Assembly: GCA_021812985.1 (NCBI GenBank)
Contig: JAKAMG010000010.1
Span: 7,853-71,852 of the forward strand
From: Bacteroidota bacterium
GTDB taxonomy: Bacteria > Bacteroidota > Ignavibacteria > Kryptoniales > JAKASW01
Length of the DNA: 64,000 bases
Direction: 5' to 3'
This document shows positions 56,380-62,764 of this stretch, piece by piece. Under the pieces are notes generated by a model. That model did not search any database, was not told where the DNA came from, and saw nothing but the letters and a program-made list of their open reading frames with translations. Position 1 is the stretch's first letter. Each line of letters starts with the position of its first letter. A program made the position numbers and the translations under genes.

Positions 56380-58587
56380 TTAATAAAGCCCTGATACGTT
56401 GAATTCTTTGTTTTCACAATTGATTACGACGGTGACATTCTTGCTTATCGGCTGACCGGCCCTGGGTGTCTGCGCAACTATTTTTCCGCTGCCGACAACC
56501 CGGAACGGAACCCCTGCCGACAGGAGAAAACTCGTAGCGTTCCTCACGCTCGTGCCCGTGAAATCGGGCATCTTTTTGACGCGGCTCGCGTCGGCCGTCT
56601 TGATGCTCACTATGGAACCCTTCTTTACCATGGTCCCGGGAGCGGGGCTCTCTGACATGACAACGAGGTTGCGGTGGCCGGAGCTCGAAGGGGCAAGTCC
56701 GAGGTTTTCAAGTATTGCCGCAGCCGTTCCGTAATCAAGAAAGGCGACGTCAGGAACCCGAACGCCGTCGCTGACGATGCCGGAGGGGGATTCTGAGGCT
56801 GAGGCCTTCCCGACACTCTGTCCATTCCCGCCGTTAGACACCATCCGGATTTCACCGTTCGTCAGGTCGTTGGTCCGACGGGACATTATTCCGTAAATGC
56901 GCTCCGCTATCTTTTTGAAAATGGGGGCCGCCACCATGCCACCCGTGTAACCCTTCATCGGGGAGTCGACCATTATGTATCCGACTATCGCGGGGTTCGG
57001 GACCGGGAAGAAACCGCAGAAGGATGCGTGGTAATATTTCTTCGAGTACTTCCCGTCCACAAGCTTCTGAGCAGTTCCCGTCTTGCCGGCGATGAGAAGG
57101 TCCGGTATCCTCGCCTCCTCTCCGGTACCGTGCTCGACGACATCGACGAACATGCCGGTGAGAGTCTGTGCGACGTCCGGCGTCACGACGCGGCGAATCT
57201 GCATGGGAGAATTCTGGAAGAGGACCTGGTTGTCCGGCGAGACAATTTTGTCTATGATGTACGGCTTCATAAGAATTCCGCCATCGGCAATCGCGCAATA
57301 CGCCTGAGCCATCTGCAGCGTCGTCACGAGAACACCATAGCCGAACGACATGAAGGGGAGCGAGACCTTGGACCATTCATACGGCTTTGTCAGCTCGCCT
57401 GGTACTTCGCCGGGAAGACCGATTCCCGTCGGCGCTCCAAATCCGAAATCCCTGGCGTACCTGTAAAACTTGTCGGAGCCGATCTTGCGGCCGACCTTCG
57501 AGAAGACGACGTTGCTCGAAAGCTCGACGGCGCGCCTGAATGAGATCCATCCTCCCGTTCGCTCGAAATCCTGAATGACGCGACCGTACAGAGTGTACCT
57601 GCCGTTTTCGGCGAAGATCAGGTCATTGGGAGTCTCGATCCCTTCCTCCAGCGCGGCGGAAGCGGTGACGACCTTGAAAGTTGAGCCCGGCTCGAAGACA
57701 TCTGTTATCGCCCTGTCACGCGCGTCCGCGTTGCTGTACTTGTCGTACTCGGATGGATCGAACGAAGGATAGTTTGCCATCGCCAAGATCTCGCCCGTGT
57801 TAGGGTCCATGAAGACGGCCGTTGCAGACGCGGCGCCCGTCCGCTGTACTCCTGCCTCAAGCTCCTGCTCGACGATCTGCTCTATGTTCATGTCGAGCGT
57901 CAGCTGTATGTTGCATCCTGGCACCGGGTCAACCTTCGGATAATCGACTGACGGCATCTTCCTTCCGAGACCGTCACGCTGCATTATCTCGTAACCGTTC
58001 GTCCCGGCCAGGAGGGAGTCAAACTCCATCTCGACGCCGCTCGCCCCCTTCCCGTCGACGTTCGTGAATCCGAGAACCTGCCCGGCGGACGTTCCGTACG
58101 GATAAAGCCTTTGCTGTTCCTGGAGACGGATCAAGCCGTACATCTTGAAATTCTGAAGGGCCGCCGATTGAGCGGGGCTCACGTTCCTTGCAAGCCAGAC
58201 GAAGCGCGATTTGCCGTTCAGCCTGCTCATAAAGGAGGAGGCCGGCATGTTGAATACAGATGCAAATTCCGCGGCTAGCTTCGATTTCTGATCGGGATTT
58301 AGAAGTTGCGGGTCGGCGGCATAAGAGAAGCCGTAGCTGTTGGATACTATCAGACTCCCGTTGCGGTCATAAATCAAACCGCGGTTTGCGTGGAGAATCA
58401 CGCGGCTCTCATACTGGTCCTTGGCCACGCGCTGATAATAAAACCCCTTTACTCCCTGAACGAAGACAAGCTTCACGGCGATGCCGAGGAAGATCAGGGC
58501 GAACACAACACGCAGGAAATTTACCCTGCCGTTGTAACTCACCCGCGGATTTGGCTCCGACGGACTATTTTGTCGAGTCTCTTGCAT
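56380..58587 (-). CDS. ftsI: Class B penicillin-binding protein (PBP3) with C-terminal PASTA domains
   Basis: RGLIYDRNG, EPGSTFK (SxxK), SSN, KTGT; PASTA repeats VPDV../MPDF.. Confidence 0.93.
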   Translation of the reverse strand: MQETRQNSPSEPNPRVSYNGRVNFLRVVFALIFLGIAVKLVFVQGVKGFYYQRVAKDQYESRVILHANRGLIYDRNGSLIVSNSYGFSYAADPQLLNPDQKSKLAAEFASVFNMPASSFMSRLNGKSRFVWLARNVSPAQSAALQNFKMYGLIRLQEQQRLYPYGTSAGQVLGFTNVDGKGASGVEMEFDSLLAGTNGYEIMQRDGLGRKMPSVDYPKVDPVPGCNIQLTLDMNIEQIVEQELEAGVQRTGAASATAVFMDPNTGEILAMANYPSFDPSEYDKYSNADARDRAITDVFEPGSTFKVVTASAALEEGIETPNDLIFAENGRYTLYGRVIQDFERTGGWISFRRAVELSSNVVFSKVGRKIGSDKFYRYARDFGFGAPTGIGLPGEVPGELTKPYEWSKVSLPFMSFGYGVLVTTLQMAQAYCAIADGGILMKPYIIDKIVSPDNQVLFQNSPMQIRRVVTPDVAQTLTGMFVDVVEHGTGEEARIPDLLIAGKTGTAQKLVDGKYSKKYYHASFCGFFPVPNPAIVGYIMVDSPMKGYTGGMVAAPIFKKIAERIYGIMSRRTNDLTNGEIRMVSNGGNGQSVGKASASESPSGIVSDGVRVPDVAFLDYGTAAAILENLGLAPSSSGHRNLVVMSESPAPGTMVKKGSIVSIKTADASRVKKMPDFTGTSVRNATSFLLSAGVPFRVVGSGKIVAQTPRAGQPISKNVTVVINCENKEFNVSGLY

Positions 58588-58936
58588 CCTGCTCTTCTGC
58601 TTCCTGAAGCTTGTCCTTGTCTATTTGTATCTGGTCGAGAGTCTGACTGCTGTACACCAGCCCGAGCCTCTCGGAGGCGATTCGCGTTATCCTTTCAGCG
58701 CTCGAAAGCCTTTTGAACTCCGCCTGGAGTGAATCGTTCTGCAGCTTGAGCTCCGAATAAGTCGAGTCGAGAGAGCCGATCTCAGCTGTGAGAGAATCTA
58801 CAGTCACGCTGTTGTTCACTATGAGGAGAAGCACTCCAACCGCGCCGGCCAATACTATCATAAACTTTGATACCGAGAGCGAGGCTCCCTTTGCCGGTTT
58901 CTTCTGCTCGGCAGGTTTCCTGGCTTCCTCGCTCAT
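58565..58936 (-). CDS. ftsL: Cell division protein FtsL
   Basis: Single TM plus coiled coil, LSSAERI..IA...LGL; between rsmH and ftsI. Confidence 0.78.
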   Translation of the reverse strand: MSEEARKPAEQKKPAKGASLSVSKFMIVLAGAVGVLLLIVNNSVTVDSLTAEIGSLDSTYSELKLQNDSLQAEFKRLSSAERITRIASERLGLVYSSQTLDQIQIDKDKLQEAEEQDARDSTK

Positions 58937-59850
58937 GAAATCTTCTCCGCCACCCTCAGCTTCGCGCTTCTCGCTCGGCGGTTGCTCTTCACGGCGTCTT
59001 CGCCCGGAGACACCGGCTTCCTTGTCAGTATCCTGACTCTCGCCTTCTTACCGCAAGTGCAAATGATCGCCTCCGGGGGGCAGACGCACGAAGCAGCCTC
59101 GTACCTGAACTTCTCCTTTACAACCCTGTCTTCAAGGGAATGGTACGATATCACGGCAACCCTTCCCCCTTTTGTTACCGTATCGACCGCCGAATCGAGT
59201 CCCTTAGACAACACCTCGATTTCGCCGTTGACTTCGATTCGAAGCGCCTGAAAAATCCTTGATAACGGCTTAACGGCCCCCCCTAACACTCTAGAGACTA
59301 TTTCGGCCAACTGAACAGTGGTTTCAATCTCCCTGGTTTCCCTCGCCCTTACTATCGCCCTCGCGAGCGAGCGCGACCTCGGCTCCTCGCCGTATCTGAA
59401 AAAGACGTCGGCTAGATCGTCCTGACTGTACGAGTTGACGACCTCGTGCGCGGAAGTCTTTAACCTTTTGTCGAGCCTCATGTCGAGCTTTTCGTCGCGC
59501 CTATAGCTGAATCCCTCTTCGTTGTCGAGTTGATACGAAGAGACGCCGAGATCAAAGAGAAACCCGTTGAAAGATTCCCCCTCATGTTTTTCGCGCAGAG
59601 AACCGATAGAAGAGAAGTTGCTCCTAAAGAATAGCAATCGTCGGTCAGAGGCGGAGAGATCTTCGGCTATGCGTTGTGAGTTGATGTCGACATCGAAGGC
59701 GTAGACTCGCCCTTCGGGTTCGAGCCTGGAAAGTATCTCACGTGTGTGTCCGCCTCCTCCAAAGGTCGCATCGACATATGTCCCCTTCGGGTCGGTAATC
59801 AAGAAGTCAACACTCTCCTTGAGGAGTACAGGTTCGTGGTATATTGTCAT
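58933..59850 (-). CDS. rsmH: 16S rRNA m4C1402 methyltransferase
   Basis: HEPVLL, DATFGGGGH, DLGVSS, LDMR, FQALRIEVN, SYHSLED, RARSAKLR. Confidence 0.97.
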   Translation of the reverse strand: MTIYHEPVLLKESVDFLITDPKGTYVDATFGGGGHTREILSRLEPEGRVYAFDVDINSQRIAEDLSASDRRLLFFRSNFSSIGSLREKHEGESFNGFLFDLGVSSYQLDNEEGFSYRRDEKLDMRLDKRLKTSAHEVVNSYSQDDLADVFFRYGEEPRSRSLARAIVRARETREIETTVQLAEIVSRVLGGAVKPLSRIFQALRIEVNGEIEVLSKGLDSAVDTVTKGGRVAVISYHSLEDRVVKEKFRYEAASCVCPPEAIICTCGKKARVRILTRKPVSPGEDAVKSNRRARSAKLRVAEKIS

Positions 59851-59852
59851 TA

Positions 59853-60311
59853 TTACTTGTTGACATTAACCGCCATGATCTGTTCGACAACTGAGGCGTA
59901 GTTCTCCGGTTGGGAGTTCAGGTATTCAACGAATGTCTTTGGATTCCAGAGTTCGATTCTTTCGAGGGCGCCAATGATGACGACTTCTTTTTCGATCTCG
60001 GCGAATTCGAGGAGGTTCTTGGGAATTATGATGCGTGATTGTGAGTCCAGAGGAAATTCTTCCGAAGCCCACATTAGGAGGGTTCTGATGAAGTATCTGT
60101 GCTTCTCCAGAAATTGGTTGAGGGAGCGGAGCTTTTCTTCAAGTCGCCGCCATTCATCGAGGGGATAAACGTAGAGACATTTTTCGACGCCGCGCGTCAC
60201 GACAAATGTGTCATGAGCCTCGGAGGAGAGGCTTTTCCGAAGCTTCGCAGGAATGCTTAGCCTACCCTTCGAGTCTAAAACGTATTCGTAGCGTCCTTTG
60301 AATGACGACAT
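59853..60311 (-). CDS. mraZ: Division/cell wall cluster transcriptional regulator
   Basis: LDSKGRLSIP, LDSQSRIIIP, IELW; first gene of dcw cluster. Confidence 0.95.
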   Translation of the reverse strand: MSSFKGRYEYVLDSKGRLSIPAKLRKSLSSEAHDTFVVTRGVEKCLYVYPLDEWRRLEEKLRSLNQFLEKHRYFIRTLLMWASEEFPLDSQSRIIIPKNLLEFAEIEKEVVIIGALERIELWNPKTFVEYLNSQPENYASVVEQIMAVNVNK

Positions 60312-60380
60312 CTTCCTCTAAACTTCTCCGAAAATCCTTCGGACACATTTTTTTAGTAAACAATGGGAAAAGCAGGAGAC

Positions 60381-60467
60381 TTCCCCACTTTTCCCCACCA
60401 CGTTGGAAATTTAACCAACCCGCTCCAAAAGTCAAGCAGGATTTTTGCCATTTTTCCCCACACACCC
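60381..60467 (-). promoter_or_regulatory. dcw promoter flanked by MraZ-type direct repeats
   Basis: GTGGGGAAAA-GTGGGGAA (60381-60398, 10-bp period) and GTGGGGAAAAATGGCAAAAA (~60442-60461) around TTGACT-16 bp-TAAATT (60408-60435). Confidence 0.7.
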
Positions 60468-60541
60468 AAAGCCCCCAAAACAGCCAATAATTGCGCCTAT
60501 TTTTAACATTAGTTGCCGTTATAATCTATCATGAAAAAGAA

Positions 60542-60592
60542 GAACAAAAGTTTGGATAATTTCTTGACAGCTAAACTTGTGTTGTGTAATTT
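60542..60592 (+). promoter_or_regulatory. Promoter of lexA-like gene with adjacent GAAC-N4-GTTT box
   Basis: GAACAAAAGTTT at 60542-60553; TTGACA(60564)-17 bp-TAATTT(60587); ATG at 60601 without Shine-Dalgarno. Confidence 0.55.
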
Positions 60593-60600
60593 ATCGTGCG

Positions 60601-61227
60601 ATGGCAAGAGGACTTACTAAGAGGCAGGGTGAAGCACTCGAATTTATCCGCCGATTCATAAAGGATCATTCAAAACCCCCAACGTTCCGCGAACTCGGCG
60701 AACAAATGGGGATAAGCTCCACTCGCGCGGTCAGCGACCTCCTCAAGGCACTCGAAAGAAAGGGCTATATCGAGAGAGAGGCCGGAAGATCTCGTGGCAT
60801 AAATCTCCCCAAAACCGAACTGGCTAACCCAGACCTCCCCCCTTCAGTGCGAACTATACCTGTCGTATCAAGAATAGAATCACGTGAAATCATTTTTTCA
60901 AACATAGTGGATGTCCTCCACTTCGATGCGAAACTTCTCCCCGACGGTGAGCTCTTCGCTGTCAGAGTGTCGGACGACGCCATGAACATAGTCGGCCTCT
61001 TTAAAGGCGATTACGTCGTCTGTAGGAGAGTAACCGAACCCGACCAGAACTCTCTCGTCCTCGGAAGCGCGGCCGGCGTCCTAATAGTAAGGATATACGA
61101 ACTGGCCAACGGGAAAGTACACCTCAAGCCATCCAACAAATCATACCAGATTCTCAGCTTCCCCCCCGACGACAGGCAGTTCTTCGTGGCCGGCGAAGTT
61201 GTGCTGACGTTTCGCAAGACAAAGTGA
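60601..61227 (+). CDS. LexA-family repressor homolog lacking autocleavage residues
   Basis: LexA DNA-binding domain LTKRQ..PPTFREL..LKALERKGYI..SRGI; S24-like domain but VSRIESRE, RVSDDAM, LIVRIY in place of VAAG, GxSM, TVKR. Confidence 0.85.
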   Translation: MARGLTKRQGEALEFIRRFIKDHSKPPTFRELGEQMGISSTRAVSDLLKALERKGYIEREAGRSRGINLPKTELANPDLPPSVRTIPVVSRIESREIIFSNIVDVLHFDAKLLPDGELFAVRVSDDAMNIVGLFKGDYVVCRRVTEPDQNSLVLGSAAGVLIVRIYELANGKVHLKPSNKSYQILSFPPDDRQFFVAGEVVLTFRKTK

Positions 61228-61273
61228 GAATCGCGGGGAATTCCCGCATCTCCTCATCCTCCTTAAAATGTGC

Positions 61274-62764
61274 CTACGTCATATGATGCGGCTTCACGTT
61301 CTGCAGCGTAGCACGCACCTCCGGAAGACTCTCAGCGCTCGCCAGGACAAGAAGGGTATCCCCCTCACGTAGAATTGTCCCACCGCTGGGGACGATATAC
61401 TCGTCGTCTCTCCCTATGAGCACGACAAGTGTATCCTGCGGCAGGCCGAGCTCCACAATCGATCTTCCTACAACTGTCGAGTCATATGGCACGATGAAAT
61501 CTACAAGATCCGCGTTGATTCCCTCCGTCGGCGCAAACTCTATCGGGTGCCTTTGTTTGGGCTCCAACGGAGCATCCACCTTCAGCAACCTGGCTACTAT
61601 TGGAACAGACCATCCCTGCAGCAGTGCAGACGTGAGTACTATGAAGAAGACGAGATTGAAAAGCATCCTCGCACCGGGGAGACCGGCTATGAGCGGAAAG
61701 ATTGCGAGAACGATGGGAACCGCGCCCCTCAGTCCTACCCATGAGACAAAGGCCTTGTCCCGCCACCCATTCCTCGAGAAACTCAATGTGAGGAAGACGC
61801 CCAGCGGACGCGCGACAAACATCAGAAATACTGAGACGAGAAGCCCAATCCCCATCACCGCCATTACCTGGGAAGGAAACACGAGCAGGCCCAATGTCAG
61901 GAACATCCCTATCTGGCTGAGCCAGGCAAAGCCGTCGAAGAATCTGAGCAGGCTCTTCTTCTGAACGAACTCGCTGTTTCCAGCGACGAGCCCGGCGACG
62001 TAGACCGCGAGAAATCCGCTTCCACCTGTAAGCGTCGCCGCTCCGTACGTGAAGGCCACGAACGCCAGCACCATCACCGGGTATATTCCTTCAAACCAGA
62101 TCTTCAGCCTGTTAAGCGCGAGTACCATGACATGACCCGTCATCAGGCCGAACATCACACCTATCCCCATTTGGAGTATGAACTGAGTTACTATTCCGAG
62201 CGGTGATGTGCGGTTTGCGGTGATAAGCTGTATCGCGCCTATCGTAAGGAAGACAGCCATAGGGTCGTTGCTGCCGGACTCGAGTTCGAGAAGGGACCGG
62301 ATATTACCCTTCAAGCTGATATTCCGCGACCTGAGGACGGCGAACACTGCCGCCGCGTCGGTGGAAGAGACCACCGAACCGAGTAGGAATCCTTCAAGCG
62401 GAGAGAATCCGAAGAGATACGAAGTGAAAATCCCGACCGATAGAGCAGTAAGAAAGACACCTAACGTCGAGAGTCCCACCGCCTGCCAGACCACTGGGCG
62501 CACGCTCGACCACTTGGTGTCGAAGCCTCCCGCGAACAGTATGAATATAAGCGCTACTATTCCGATCGATTGCGCAGCCCGCGCGTTGTCAAAATATATC
62601 CCCCCTATCCCCTCTGAGCCGGCAAGCATCCCTATTGCTATGAAAAGGAGGAGCATAGGCAGGCCAAGGCTGTCCGAGACCTTTGCTATGATTATGCTCA
62701 GCAGAACAAGGATTGATCCGACTAGGAGGAGATACTCGATCGGAATCGCGGGAATAGAGTGCAT
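61274..62764 (-). CDS. Potassium/proton antiporter (CvrA/NhaP2 family) with TrkA-C domain
   Basis: GMLAGSEG, SSTDAAAVF, LELESGSNDPMA, WVGLRGAVPI, C-terminal IVPSGGTILREGD. Confidence 0.92.
   Translation of the reverse strand: MHSIPAIPIEYLLLVGSILVLLSIIIAKVSDSLGLPMLLLFIAIGMLAGSEGIGGIYFDNARAAQSIGIVALIFILFAGGFDTKWSSVRPVVWQAVGLSTLGVFLTALSVGIFTSYLFGFSPLEGFLLGSVVSSTDAAAVFAVLRSRNISLKGNIRSLLELESGSNDPMAVFLTIGAIQLITANRTSPLGIVTQFILQMGIGVMFGLMTGHVMVLALNRLKIWFEGIYPVMVLAFVAFTYGAATLTGGSGFLAVYVAGLVAGNSEFVQKKSLLRFFDGFAWLSQIGMFLTLGLLVFPSQVMAVMGIGLLVSVFLMFVARPLGVFLTLSFSRNGWRDKAFVSWVGLRGAVPIVLAIFPLIAGLPGARMLFNLVFFIVLTSALLQGWSVPIVARLLKVDAPLEPKQRHPIEFAPTEGINADLVDFIVPYDSTVVGRSIVELGLPQDTLVVLIGRDDEYIVPSGGTILREGDTLLVLASAESLPEVRATLQNVKPHHMT

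Follow-up and report, generated by a model that had tools for sequence, protein, structure and literature searches.

LexA is the textbook repressor that is inactivated by cutting itself, and the locus analyzed here raises the question of what a LexA that has lost the means of self-cutting does beside a division gene cluster. The gene in question lies at 60601-61227 on the forward (+) strand of the window, that is, the whole 64,000-nucleotide stretch of contig JAKAMG010000010.1 (GenBank assembly GCA_021812985.1) from a Bacteroidota bacterium of the order Kryptoniales in the class Ignavibacteria, and it is divergent (head-to-head) from mraZ, rsmH, an ftsL/DivIC-like gene and ftsI. Here we show that it belongs to an old branch of LexA paralogs that, as a whole, gave up self-cleavage yet stays under strong selection. 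The role that we favor for its product, as the probable although far from certain one, is that of a local repressor that acts on the lexA-mraZ control region, cannot be cleaved and regulates its own gene.

Domain architecture and loss of the cleavage determinants

The list of open reading frames (ORFs) of the window opens the gene at TTG 60577 (216 amino acids, aa); all orthologs start at the ATG at 60601, with MARGLTKRQ. This common start bears out the coordinates 60601-61227 (+) given in an earlier reading made from the letters and the ORF list alone (hereafter, the sequence-only reading), and the product, P0001, is 208 aa long. It consists of a LexA-type winged-helix DNA-binding domain (residues 3-66, 60607-60798, +; Pfam PF01726 LexA_DNA_bind, 80 bits, E 1.1e-22) and an S24-fold C-terminal domain that lacks the catalytic dyad (residues 100-201, 60898-61203, +; PF00717 Peptidase_S24, 49.3 bits), so that both domains named in the sequence-only reading were recovered with profiles. 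The NCBIfam profile TIGR00498 (lexA) matches the protein with 127.1 bits against a cut-off of 110.95. In an AlphaFold2 model built from 21 relatives (mean pLDDT 88.4), the N-domain helices span residues 7-23, 29-36 and 41-53, and the former cleavage-site region is drawn as ordered strands. The N-domain fold matches that of 1lea with TMt 0.85 which, together with the PF01726 score, supports the intact DNA-binding domain of the sequence-only reading; the C-domain fold matches the C-domains of the LexA proteins of E. coli and M. tuberculosis with TMt 0.78-0.87, and among solved structures, the whole model is matched best by the LexA proteins of T. maritima and E. coli, with E values from 1e-16 to 1e-15. 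By its winged helix and S24 fold, the protein is a member of the LexA family.

Residues were assigned from phmmer alignments to the solved E. coli LexA chains 1jhf, 1jhh and 7b5g (E ~1e-16), from which all aligned letters come; the E. coli positions are numbered Ala84-Gly85, Gly117, Ser119 and Lys156. The former cleavage site reads IESR (residues 92-95, 60874-60885, +) in place of VAAG, with RIESR aligned to RVAAG, so that Ser94-Arg95 occupies the position of the scissile Ala84-Gly85. DDAM (residues 125-128, 60973-60984, +) is aligned to GMSM, with Ala127 at the position of the Ser119 nucleophile and Asp125 at that of Gly117, and IVRI is aligned to TVKR, with Arg164 (61090-61092, +) replacing the general-base Lys156. 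These are the same replacements of Ala-Gly, Ser and Lys that the sequence-only reading had found by eye. As judged from the alignment, the protein has neither the scissile Ala-Gly nor the Ser-Lys dyad of a functional LexA SOS repressor and is a non-peptidase homologue of peptidase family S24. Because all three determinants are lost, it cannot be expected to cleave itself by the Ser/Lys mechanism, and its RecA-stimulated self-inactivation by that route would be impossible. The view of the sequence-only reading that the protein is non-cleavable is supported by the alignment as well as by the 27 orthologs described next.

Conservation and selection

IES[RK], D[DE][AG]M and VR are read in all 27 orthologs obtained by database look-up (P0002-P0028; 63-93% identity). 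None has kept the Ser, Lys or Ala-Gly that would have indicated strain-specific decay of the window gene. Within the genus, an intact ortholog with 81-93% identity is present in 23 of the 24 relatives, the exception being a genome that is 84% complete. Selection was estimated from the 190 pairs formed by 20 genus orthologs. With a median pS of 0.79, synonymous sites are saturated, whereas the median rate of nonsynonymous substitution (dN) is 0.067; in the 48 pairs with a finite synonymous rate (dS), the median dN/dS is 0.026 and the maximum 0.043. By part of the protein, dN/dS is 0.023 in the N-domain, 0.019 in the linker with the former cleavage site and 0.032 in the C-domain, and conservation is highest in the former cleavage-site region, with a dN of 0.043.

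We are highly confident, therefore, that the gene is functional and its product non-cleavable, and the view of the sequence-only reading that this is a full-length gene that is not decaying stands on the intact relatives and the dN/dS of about 0.03. The disappearance of all three cleavage determinants is what a decaying or recently inactivated lexA copy might show, but such a copy would not be expected to keep its frame intact in 23 of 24 genus relatives, to evolve with such a low dN/dS at saturated synonymous sites, or to share its changes with all 27 orthologs and with members in 13 families. The probability that the gene is such a copy is, in our estimate, close to nil.

An old clade of non-catalytic LexA paralogs

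A profile of the non-catalytic members was searched over 201 genomes of the class and 301 genomes of the phylum, and 94 lexA-type loci were fetched and assigned to groups by their motifs before any tree was built: 53 lack the dyad (hereafter, dead loci), and 41 are canonical. The 53 dyad-less loci span 13 family codes (f1, f2, f5, f9, f18, f22, f29, f30, f34, f42, f47, f53 and f59). Exact look-ups of the dead-LexA proteins returned the source names Candidatus Kryptonia/Kryptoniota and Candidatus Thermokryptus mobilis; further source names are Candidatus Kapabacteria, 'Chlorobi bacterium OLB7', Chloroherpetonaceae, Candidatus Thermochlorobacter, Rhodothermus marinus (WP_012845191.1), R. profundi, Rhodocaloribacter litoris and Salinibacter ruber (Q2S537). 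In databases, these proteins are labeled 'repressor LexA', 'transcriptional repressor LexA', 'LexA family protein' or 'S24 family peptidase', the first name being given because the score exceeds the TIGR00498 cut-off. Such labels would credit an SOS response to genomes such as those of Candidatus Thermokryptus, where no cleavable S24 protein was found.

Both family alignments show an invariant Asp at the Gly117 position and an invariant Arg at the Lys156 position (D125 and R164 of the window protein). Among the 87 rows of a quick maximum-likelihood tree, from which 11 near-duplicate rows were left out, 34 dead rows form one side of a branch with SH-aLRT 98, and three dead proteins (P0041, P0047 and P0069) are placed elsewhere; the likelihood is higher for a tree uniting all 37 dead rows, which the AU test does not reject (p-AU 0.726). 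Of 1179 cluster representatives with E values up to 1e-30, the best 150 were surveyed. Both Ser and Lys are missing from 46 of these, whereas 95 are canonical and 9 are mixed; the Asp...Arg pair is present in 50 of the 55 non-canonical representatives, in which the old Ser position is occupied by Gly (30), Ala (9), Ser (8) or Thr (3). The window gene shows all features of the clade, namely, the Asp...Arg pair, the absence of Ala-Gly, divergence from mraZ-rsmH and the grouping in the tree. The clade is apparently undescribed: a full-text literature search, with subscription journals outside its reach, found no description of a LexA paralog beside mraZ or of the LexA of Kryptonia, Rhodothermus or Salinibacter.

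Other LexA-like proteins without the dyad were seen on metagenome contigs only, one group comprising P0041, P0045, P0047 and P0069 and another P0057, P0063 and P0070, with the motifs TDNALE...VRR and AFPD...VRR. A search for related loci of the first group found none with P0041 and, with an alignment as the query, only spirochaete LexAs at 33-37% identity.

Linkage to mraZ and the dcw cluster

On the reverse (-) strand of the window, across from the dead lexA, lie mraZ (59853-60311; Pfam MraZ, 109.6 bits) and rsmH, also known as mraW (58933-59850; Methyltransf_5, 328.9 bits), followed by the ftsL/DivIC-like gene (58565-58936) and ftsI, encoding a penicillin-binding protein transpeptidase (56380-58587), which form the start of the division and cell wall (dcw) cluster. 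A divergent mraZ is found within 700 bp at 40 of the 53 dead loci, compared with none of the 41 canonical lexA loci. Among the dead loci without this linkage, 2 of the 53 end at contig ends and 11 have no mraZ nearby (10 in f5 and one in f18), so that the linkage is seen in 11 of the 13 family codes. The head-to-head arrangement noticed in the sequence-only reading is thus an old and specific one. The downstream neighbor, by comparison, is variable: it is a cation/proton antiporter gene in 9 of the 20 genus loci examined, the window included. At the f5 loci, the neighbors of the dead lexA are unrelated genes, and mraZ is located about 148 kb to 2 Mb away where the two are on a shared contig, and otherwise on another contig.

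The control region and its putative operators

When the intergenic regions of 18 genus loci were aligned, invariant blocks were found to persist despite the saturation of synonymous sites. The putative promoter of the dead lexA (60564-60592, +) consists of TTGACA (60564-60569), a 17-bp spacer and TAATTT (60587-60592), and is conserved in the 18 loci. The start codon follows the -10 hexamer by only 8 nucleotides, and the mRNA may for that reason be leaderless or nearly leaderless. Between the -35 and -10 hexamers lies O1 (60572-60585), an imperfect inverted repeat, TAAAC-TTGT-GTTGT, that we consider a putative operator; the promoter/O1 stretch is part of the genus-conserved block CTTGAC[AC]GCTAAACTTGTGTT[GT]TGTAATTTA. 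The pattern TAAAC-N4-GTT[GT]T is present at -29 in 17 of the 18 genus loci, and in the sister family, a perfect repeat, TGAAC-AAAT-GTTCA, stands between -35 and -10 in 9 of 9 loci, in gap-free alignment with the position of O1. A second, weaker putative box, O2 (AGAAC-AAAA-GTTTG, 60541-60554), is located 31 bp upstream of O1. The repeat of the sister family is a LexA box of the GAAC/GTTC type with 4-bp spacing, as is that of S. aureus, for which a passage of PMC9578287 gives CGAACN4GTTCG.

On the opposite strand, a consensus scan detected a putative mraZ promoter (60408-60435, -) with TTGACT, a 16-bp spacer and TAAATT, both hexamers of which lie in genus-invariant blocks. MraZ binds GTGGGG-type repeats, and boxes of this type with a 10-bp period (GTGGGGAAAAGTGGGGAAG; 60380-60398, -) occupy another genus-invariant block downstream of the mraZ promoter; in the sister family, their counterpart consists of GTGGT repeated three times. 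Upstream of the mraZ promoter, there is one more MraZ-like box, which stands alone (GTGGGGAAAAA; 60451-60461, -).

The region also contains a conserved element, TGCCGTTATAAT (ATAACGGCA on the mraZ strand), at 60514-60525, which is present in 17 of the 18 genus loci, with one substitution in L022. Its CGTTAT part is kept in the sister family and at loci L060 and L069 (also L024-L033), and of four f5/f18 loci, three (L150-L152, but not L149) have ATAACG[GC]CA, the reverse complement of the CGTTAT block, in the interval from the box to the mraZ promoter. The CGTTAT/ATAACG element is accordingly kept across distant lineages, even where the dead lexA has moved away. A role of CGTTAT as a -10 hexamer was considered and dropped, as no consistent -35 fits.

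Putative operators in other lineages and their rarity

Lineage-specific paired inverted repeats, 30-40 bp apart, are found upstream of dead lexA genes in other families, and two boxes at this distance were recorded in nine other loci (L108, L109, L112-L117 and L119). The paired boxes are of the GGTGAAA-N4-TTTCACC type at the loci named Rhodothermus, Salinibacter and Rhodocaloribacter, GTGTAAA-N4-TTTACAC in f53, TGAAC-N4/5-GTTCA in the Chloroherpetonaceae type and an E. coli-like CTGTAT-N4-ATACAG in f9. The recognition helix varies with the box: STNAV accompanies TGAAC and STNGV accompanies GTGAAA, with STRAV in the genus of the window. This co-variation is suggestive only, but it would favor pairing of the boxes with the dead LexA.

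Strict pattern scans point to very few sites per genome. In the five sister-family genomes, TGAAC-N4-GTTCA occurs at 2-4 sites per genome, against 0-3 for a reversed control, and the sites beyond the promoter of the gene are within or at the edge of ORFs. Among the first 15 of the 23 GAAC-N4-GTTC sites in one of these genomes (G028), only the site at the promoter of the gene and one other are outside an ORF of 100 aa. In the five Rhodothermales genomes, the zero-mismatch pattern GTRAAA-N4-TTTCAC yields the paired boxes at the promoter of the gene plus one other site. In the genome of the window, the promoter of the gene is the only place outside long ORFs with an O1-like site, save one at argG; this latter site, TAAAC-TCCT-GTTTT (C59 22727), lies at the start of an argininosuccinate-synthase-like gene and was taken for a chance match. 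No box was found before DNA-repair genes in these strict scans of the genome of the window, the five sister-family genomes and the five Rhodothermales genomes, although weak sites could escape such scans. Within their reach, no SOS-type regulon is visible, and the only clear sites are those between the gene and mraZ. As a separate observation, GAAC-N4-GTTC is under-represented in G028, with 23 sites versus 66 for a reversed, non-complemented control.

The f5 genomes, in which the dead lexA is no longer next to mraZ, are the most informative in this respect. In all five that were examined, a CTGAWW-N4-WWTCAG repeat is located 215-282 bp upstream of the mraZ start (one genome has two), a distance matching that of O1 and O2 from mraZ in the window (230-274 bp). 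This repeat is rare in f5, with 1-7 occurrences per genome versus 0-3 for the control, most of the other sites being inside ORFs, and it was not found at dead or canonical lexA genes in the five f5 genomes. The persistence of the repeat at mraZ after the gene had moved away is the strongest evidence, albeit indirect, that the boxes would be part of the control region of mraZ and would not serve the promoter of the regulator alone. The canonical lexA promoters of this Kapabacteria-type lineage (L172-L178 and L034) have a different pattern, GGTGTTCA-N3-4-GA[AT]GACC, which is shared by 7 of the 8 loci and is probably the SOS box of the f5 lineage.

Proposed regulation of the lexA-mraZ region

We propose that the dead LexA, most likely in dimeric form, binds inverted repeats with 4-bp spacing in the 290 bp of intergenic DNA that its gene has in common with mraZ. 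The location of O1 between the -35 and -10 hexamers of its own promoter would result in negative autoregulation, which we consider quite probable. Independently of LexA cleavage, the dead LexA would act alongside MraZ on the lexA-mraZ region and, through it, on the dcw operon; its input could be a partner, a ligand or an outside protease. For an effect of the dead LexA on mraZ/dcw expression as such, we put the chances at about even. The reading as a dedicated local regulator is based on the near-uniqueness of the boxes, the linkage in 11 of 13 families and the boxes that remained at mraZ after the gene had left. The idea of the sequence-only reading that this is a LexA repurposed as an SOS-independent regulator, plausibly of dcw genes, is accordingly retained in part: the protein is predicted to be non-cleavable, the gene is linked to mraZ and there are putative operators at mraZ, but no operator is seen on the core mraZ promoter.

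Several points weigh against this proposal. No box overlaps the core mraZ promoter, O2 being about 106 bp from its -35 hexamer, so that direct repression of this promoter is not evident from the arrangement of the sites. The gene is not beside mraZ in f5 and f18 (11 loci), and no shared operator was found upstream of the f5 copies of the dead lexA. In the window itself, O1 is an imperfect repeat (TAAAC/GTTGT), and O2 is exact ([AG]AAC-N4-GTTT at -59) in only 6 of the 18 genus loci, with a looser form in 12 of the 18. The promoter of the gene, called strong in the sequence-only reading, has hexamers conserved in the 18 genus loci but was not listed by the consensus scan, and its -10 hexamer matches at 3 of 6 positions. 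The boxes are assigned to the dead LexA by position, co-variation and elimination, so the pairing stays putative. Weak sites would have escaped the regulon scans, the patterns of which were strict, and the trees are quick searches with long branches. Finally, Ser is kept at the nucleophile position in 8 of the 55 non-canonical representatives, so that some members may differ.

Three of these points make up the case for a regulator that controls itself alone, or distant genes via weak sites, with the mraZ neighborhood being nothing but inherited gene order: the core mraZ promoter is free of boxes, the gene stands away from mraZ in f5 and f18, and weak sites are invisible to strict pattern scans. 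Inherited gene order alone, however, is hard to reconcile with a linkage that holds in 11 of 13 families from several classes while the downstream neighbor varies, and that is found at none of the 41 canonical lexA loci. Furthermore, all five genomes examined in which the gene has left that position still have boxes upstream of mraZ, and a regulator with strong sites on itself alone has no evident use. We therefore regard this alternative as possible but unlikely.

Other lexA genes and a possible link to DNA damage

The genome of the window encodes three lexA-type genes, on contigs C39 and C6 and in the window. The copy on C39 scores 223 bits, has kept Ala-Gly, Ser and Lys, and is followed by a Y-family polymerase (dinB) gene; the canonical lexA for which the sequence-only reading suggested a search is therefore present, as lexA-dinB on C39. 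The copy on C6 (154 bits) has kept Ser and Lys, and the window gene scores 126 bits. The genome also contains recA. The promoters of the three lexA genes have three different palindromes, each unique or nearly so, which suggests three orthogonal, mostly local LexA circuits. The situation differs in the sister family, where none of the five genomes (93-98% complete) has an S24 gene other than the mraZ-linked copy. Other S24 genes are present in 4 of 5 further genomes (those of the loci named Rhodothermus marinus, Salinibacter and Chloroherpetonaceae, and that of f53); none was found in the genome of the locus named R. profundi.

These findings bear on the alternative offered by the sequence-only reading, that the dead protein is a dominant modulator of canonical LexA, acting via mixed dimers or competition for SOS boxes. 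Three lexA-type genes side by side in one genome, and the retention of the S24 fold that mediates LexA dimerization, would fit such a role. A modulator, however, would have nothing to modulate in the five sister-family genomes that lack any other S24 gene; in the genome of the window, the operator of the dead LexA differs from those of both other lexA promoters, and the protein is only about 32% identical to the canonical copy, from which its clade has long been separated. We consider this alternative highly improbable and abandon it in favor of a local repressor.

DNA damage could also switch off the dead LexA without self-cleavage: an antirepressor under SOS control might do so, or ClpXP or Lon as an outside protease, or the RecA filament by capturing the protein reversibly. 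Any of these would make the dead LexA an SOS-linked brake or accelerator of division. The genome has kept recA and the canonical lexA-dinB, the former cleavage-site region is the most conserved part of the protein and is modeled as ordered strands, and the 5' end of the E. coli dcw cluster is said, in a passage of PMC3265435, to carry three SOS boxes. In the sister family, however, there is no other S24 gene in any of the five genomes and thus no LexA to drive an antirepressor; moreover, no partner gene is conserved next to the dead lexA, the downstream neighbor being variable, and there is no evidence of contact with RecA. On balance, continued control by DNA damage seems improbable to us.

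A broader version of the local-repressor reading would make the dead LexA an ancestral, cleavage-independent governor of dcw across the Rhodothermus-Salinibacter, Chloroherpeton-type, Kapabacteria and Kryptonia lineages. It and MraZ would be the two repressors of one module at a single shared control region, and its operators would co-evolve with its recognition helix. In its boldest form, damage would be read by reversible RecA-filament capture via the conserved former cleavage loop; if true, damage would be coupled to division directly and without proteolysis, instead of through an inhibitor of the SulA type. We put this broader scenario forward tentatively, as one that is more doubtful than not.

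Some additional features of the other lexA genes were noted. The lexA1-dinB promoter (C39 ~54420; L001 ~1468-1485) contains a perfect 7-4-7 palindrome, AGTAGAC-CTAT-GTCTACT, and the lexA2 promoter (C6 ~16189; L002, upstream of 2088) contains another, GGTATAC-ATTT-GTATACC; in 3.5 Mb, each occurs once, or once plus one intragenic site. The second LexA (L002 1459-2088, -) has A-R-G-G at the cleavage site, compared with A-A-G in canonical copies, with Ser and Lys kept. The gene that follows it (L002 678-1316, -; 212 aa) has no Pfam match and could encode an ImuA-like partner of a mutagenesis cassette.

Comparison with known regulators

Canonical LexA (E. coli, PDB 1JHF/1JHH/3JSO; TIGR00498) has the same two-domain architecture and fold as the window protein and a palindromic operator in its own promoter, the counterpart of which here is putative. 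The window protein differs in the loss of Ala-Gly, Ser and Lys, in that no SOS-type regulon was found, and in the tie to mraZ, which is seen at none of the 41 canonical loci. The second LexAs of Pseudomonas putida and Xanthomonas axonopodis are cleavable and control damage-inducible cassettes; the second lexA in the genome of the window (on C6) looks like this type, whereas the window gene does not. According to a passage of PMC9578287, several LexA proteins with independent binding sequences coexist in the cells of these two species, a likeness to the three different boxes in the genome of the window.

A precedent for the loss of cleavage determinants is the LexA of Synechocystis sp. PCC 6803, which the consulted part of PMC3091678 describes as naturally non-cleavable, with Ala-Gly changed to Gly-Gly and Ser to Asp, and for which non-SOS roles have been proposed. 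It is the single lexA of the cell, altered in one lineage, whereas the dead LexA forms a separate old paralog clade that has lost Lys, too, occurs next to canonical LexA in the gene sets of many genomes and is tied to mraZ as its fixed genomic partner. IrvR of Streptococcus mutans, presented in an excerpt of PMC7101444 as LexA-like and RecA-independent, is likewise a regulator of the LexA superfamily outside the RecA paradigm; it differs in that it still autocleaves and has another N-terminal domain and other targets. The non-canonical LexA of Bacteroidetes, in turn, is an S24-family repressor from the same broad group of phyla; a passage of PMC8565304 characterizes it as a catalytic protein with a cI-type helix-turn-helix (HTH) plus S24. 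It differs in keeping Ala-Gly and Ser-Lys, in its phage-type HTH and in running a canonical SOS response.

MraZ itself, the known regulator at the head of dcw, is expected to act in the same control region, with MraZ-type repeats downstream of the putative mraZ promoter, but it has an unrelated fold and direct-repeat sites. The dead LexA would provide a further input, encoded by a separate gene. Should it control dcw, this septum and cell-wall operon would have two dedicated regulators, the dead LexA and MraZ. The role of MraZ is itself still poorly understood. Two carriers of the dead LexA, Rhodothermus marinus and Salinibacter ruber, are harmless and in culture, which makes the question directly testable.

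Further features of the intergenic region

Some loci depart from the common layout of the intergenic region. At L020 (G013), the promoter/O1 block and the gene start are about 260 bases further apart than elsewhere in the genus. At L069 (G056, from the other genus of the family), the intergenic region is 458 bp long and contains a tandem pair of repeats of about 90 bases between the CGTTAT element and the gene; the O1 sequence was not seen in the promoter spacer of this locus.

The only Rfam match in 60200-61350 was a chance one that scored far under its threshold. Two hairpins were noted. The first, of 13 pairs (GGGAAAAG...CTTTTCCC), lies in the mraZ leader (60365-60395, -) and spans the MraZ boxes; its arms are conserved in the genus and its loop is variable. 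The second is a terminator-like hairpin (TCCGAAAATCCTTCGGA followed by a T run; 60327-60343, +) just upstream of the mraZ start, an indel present in about half of the genus loci.

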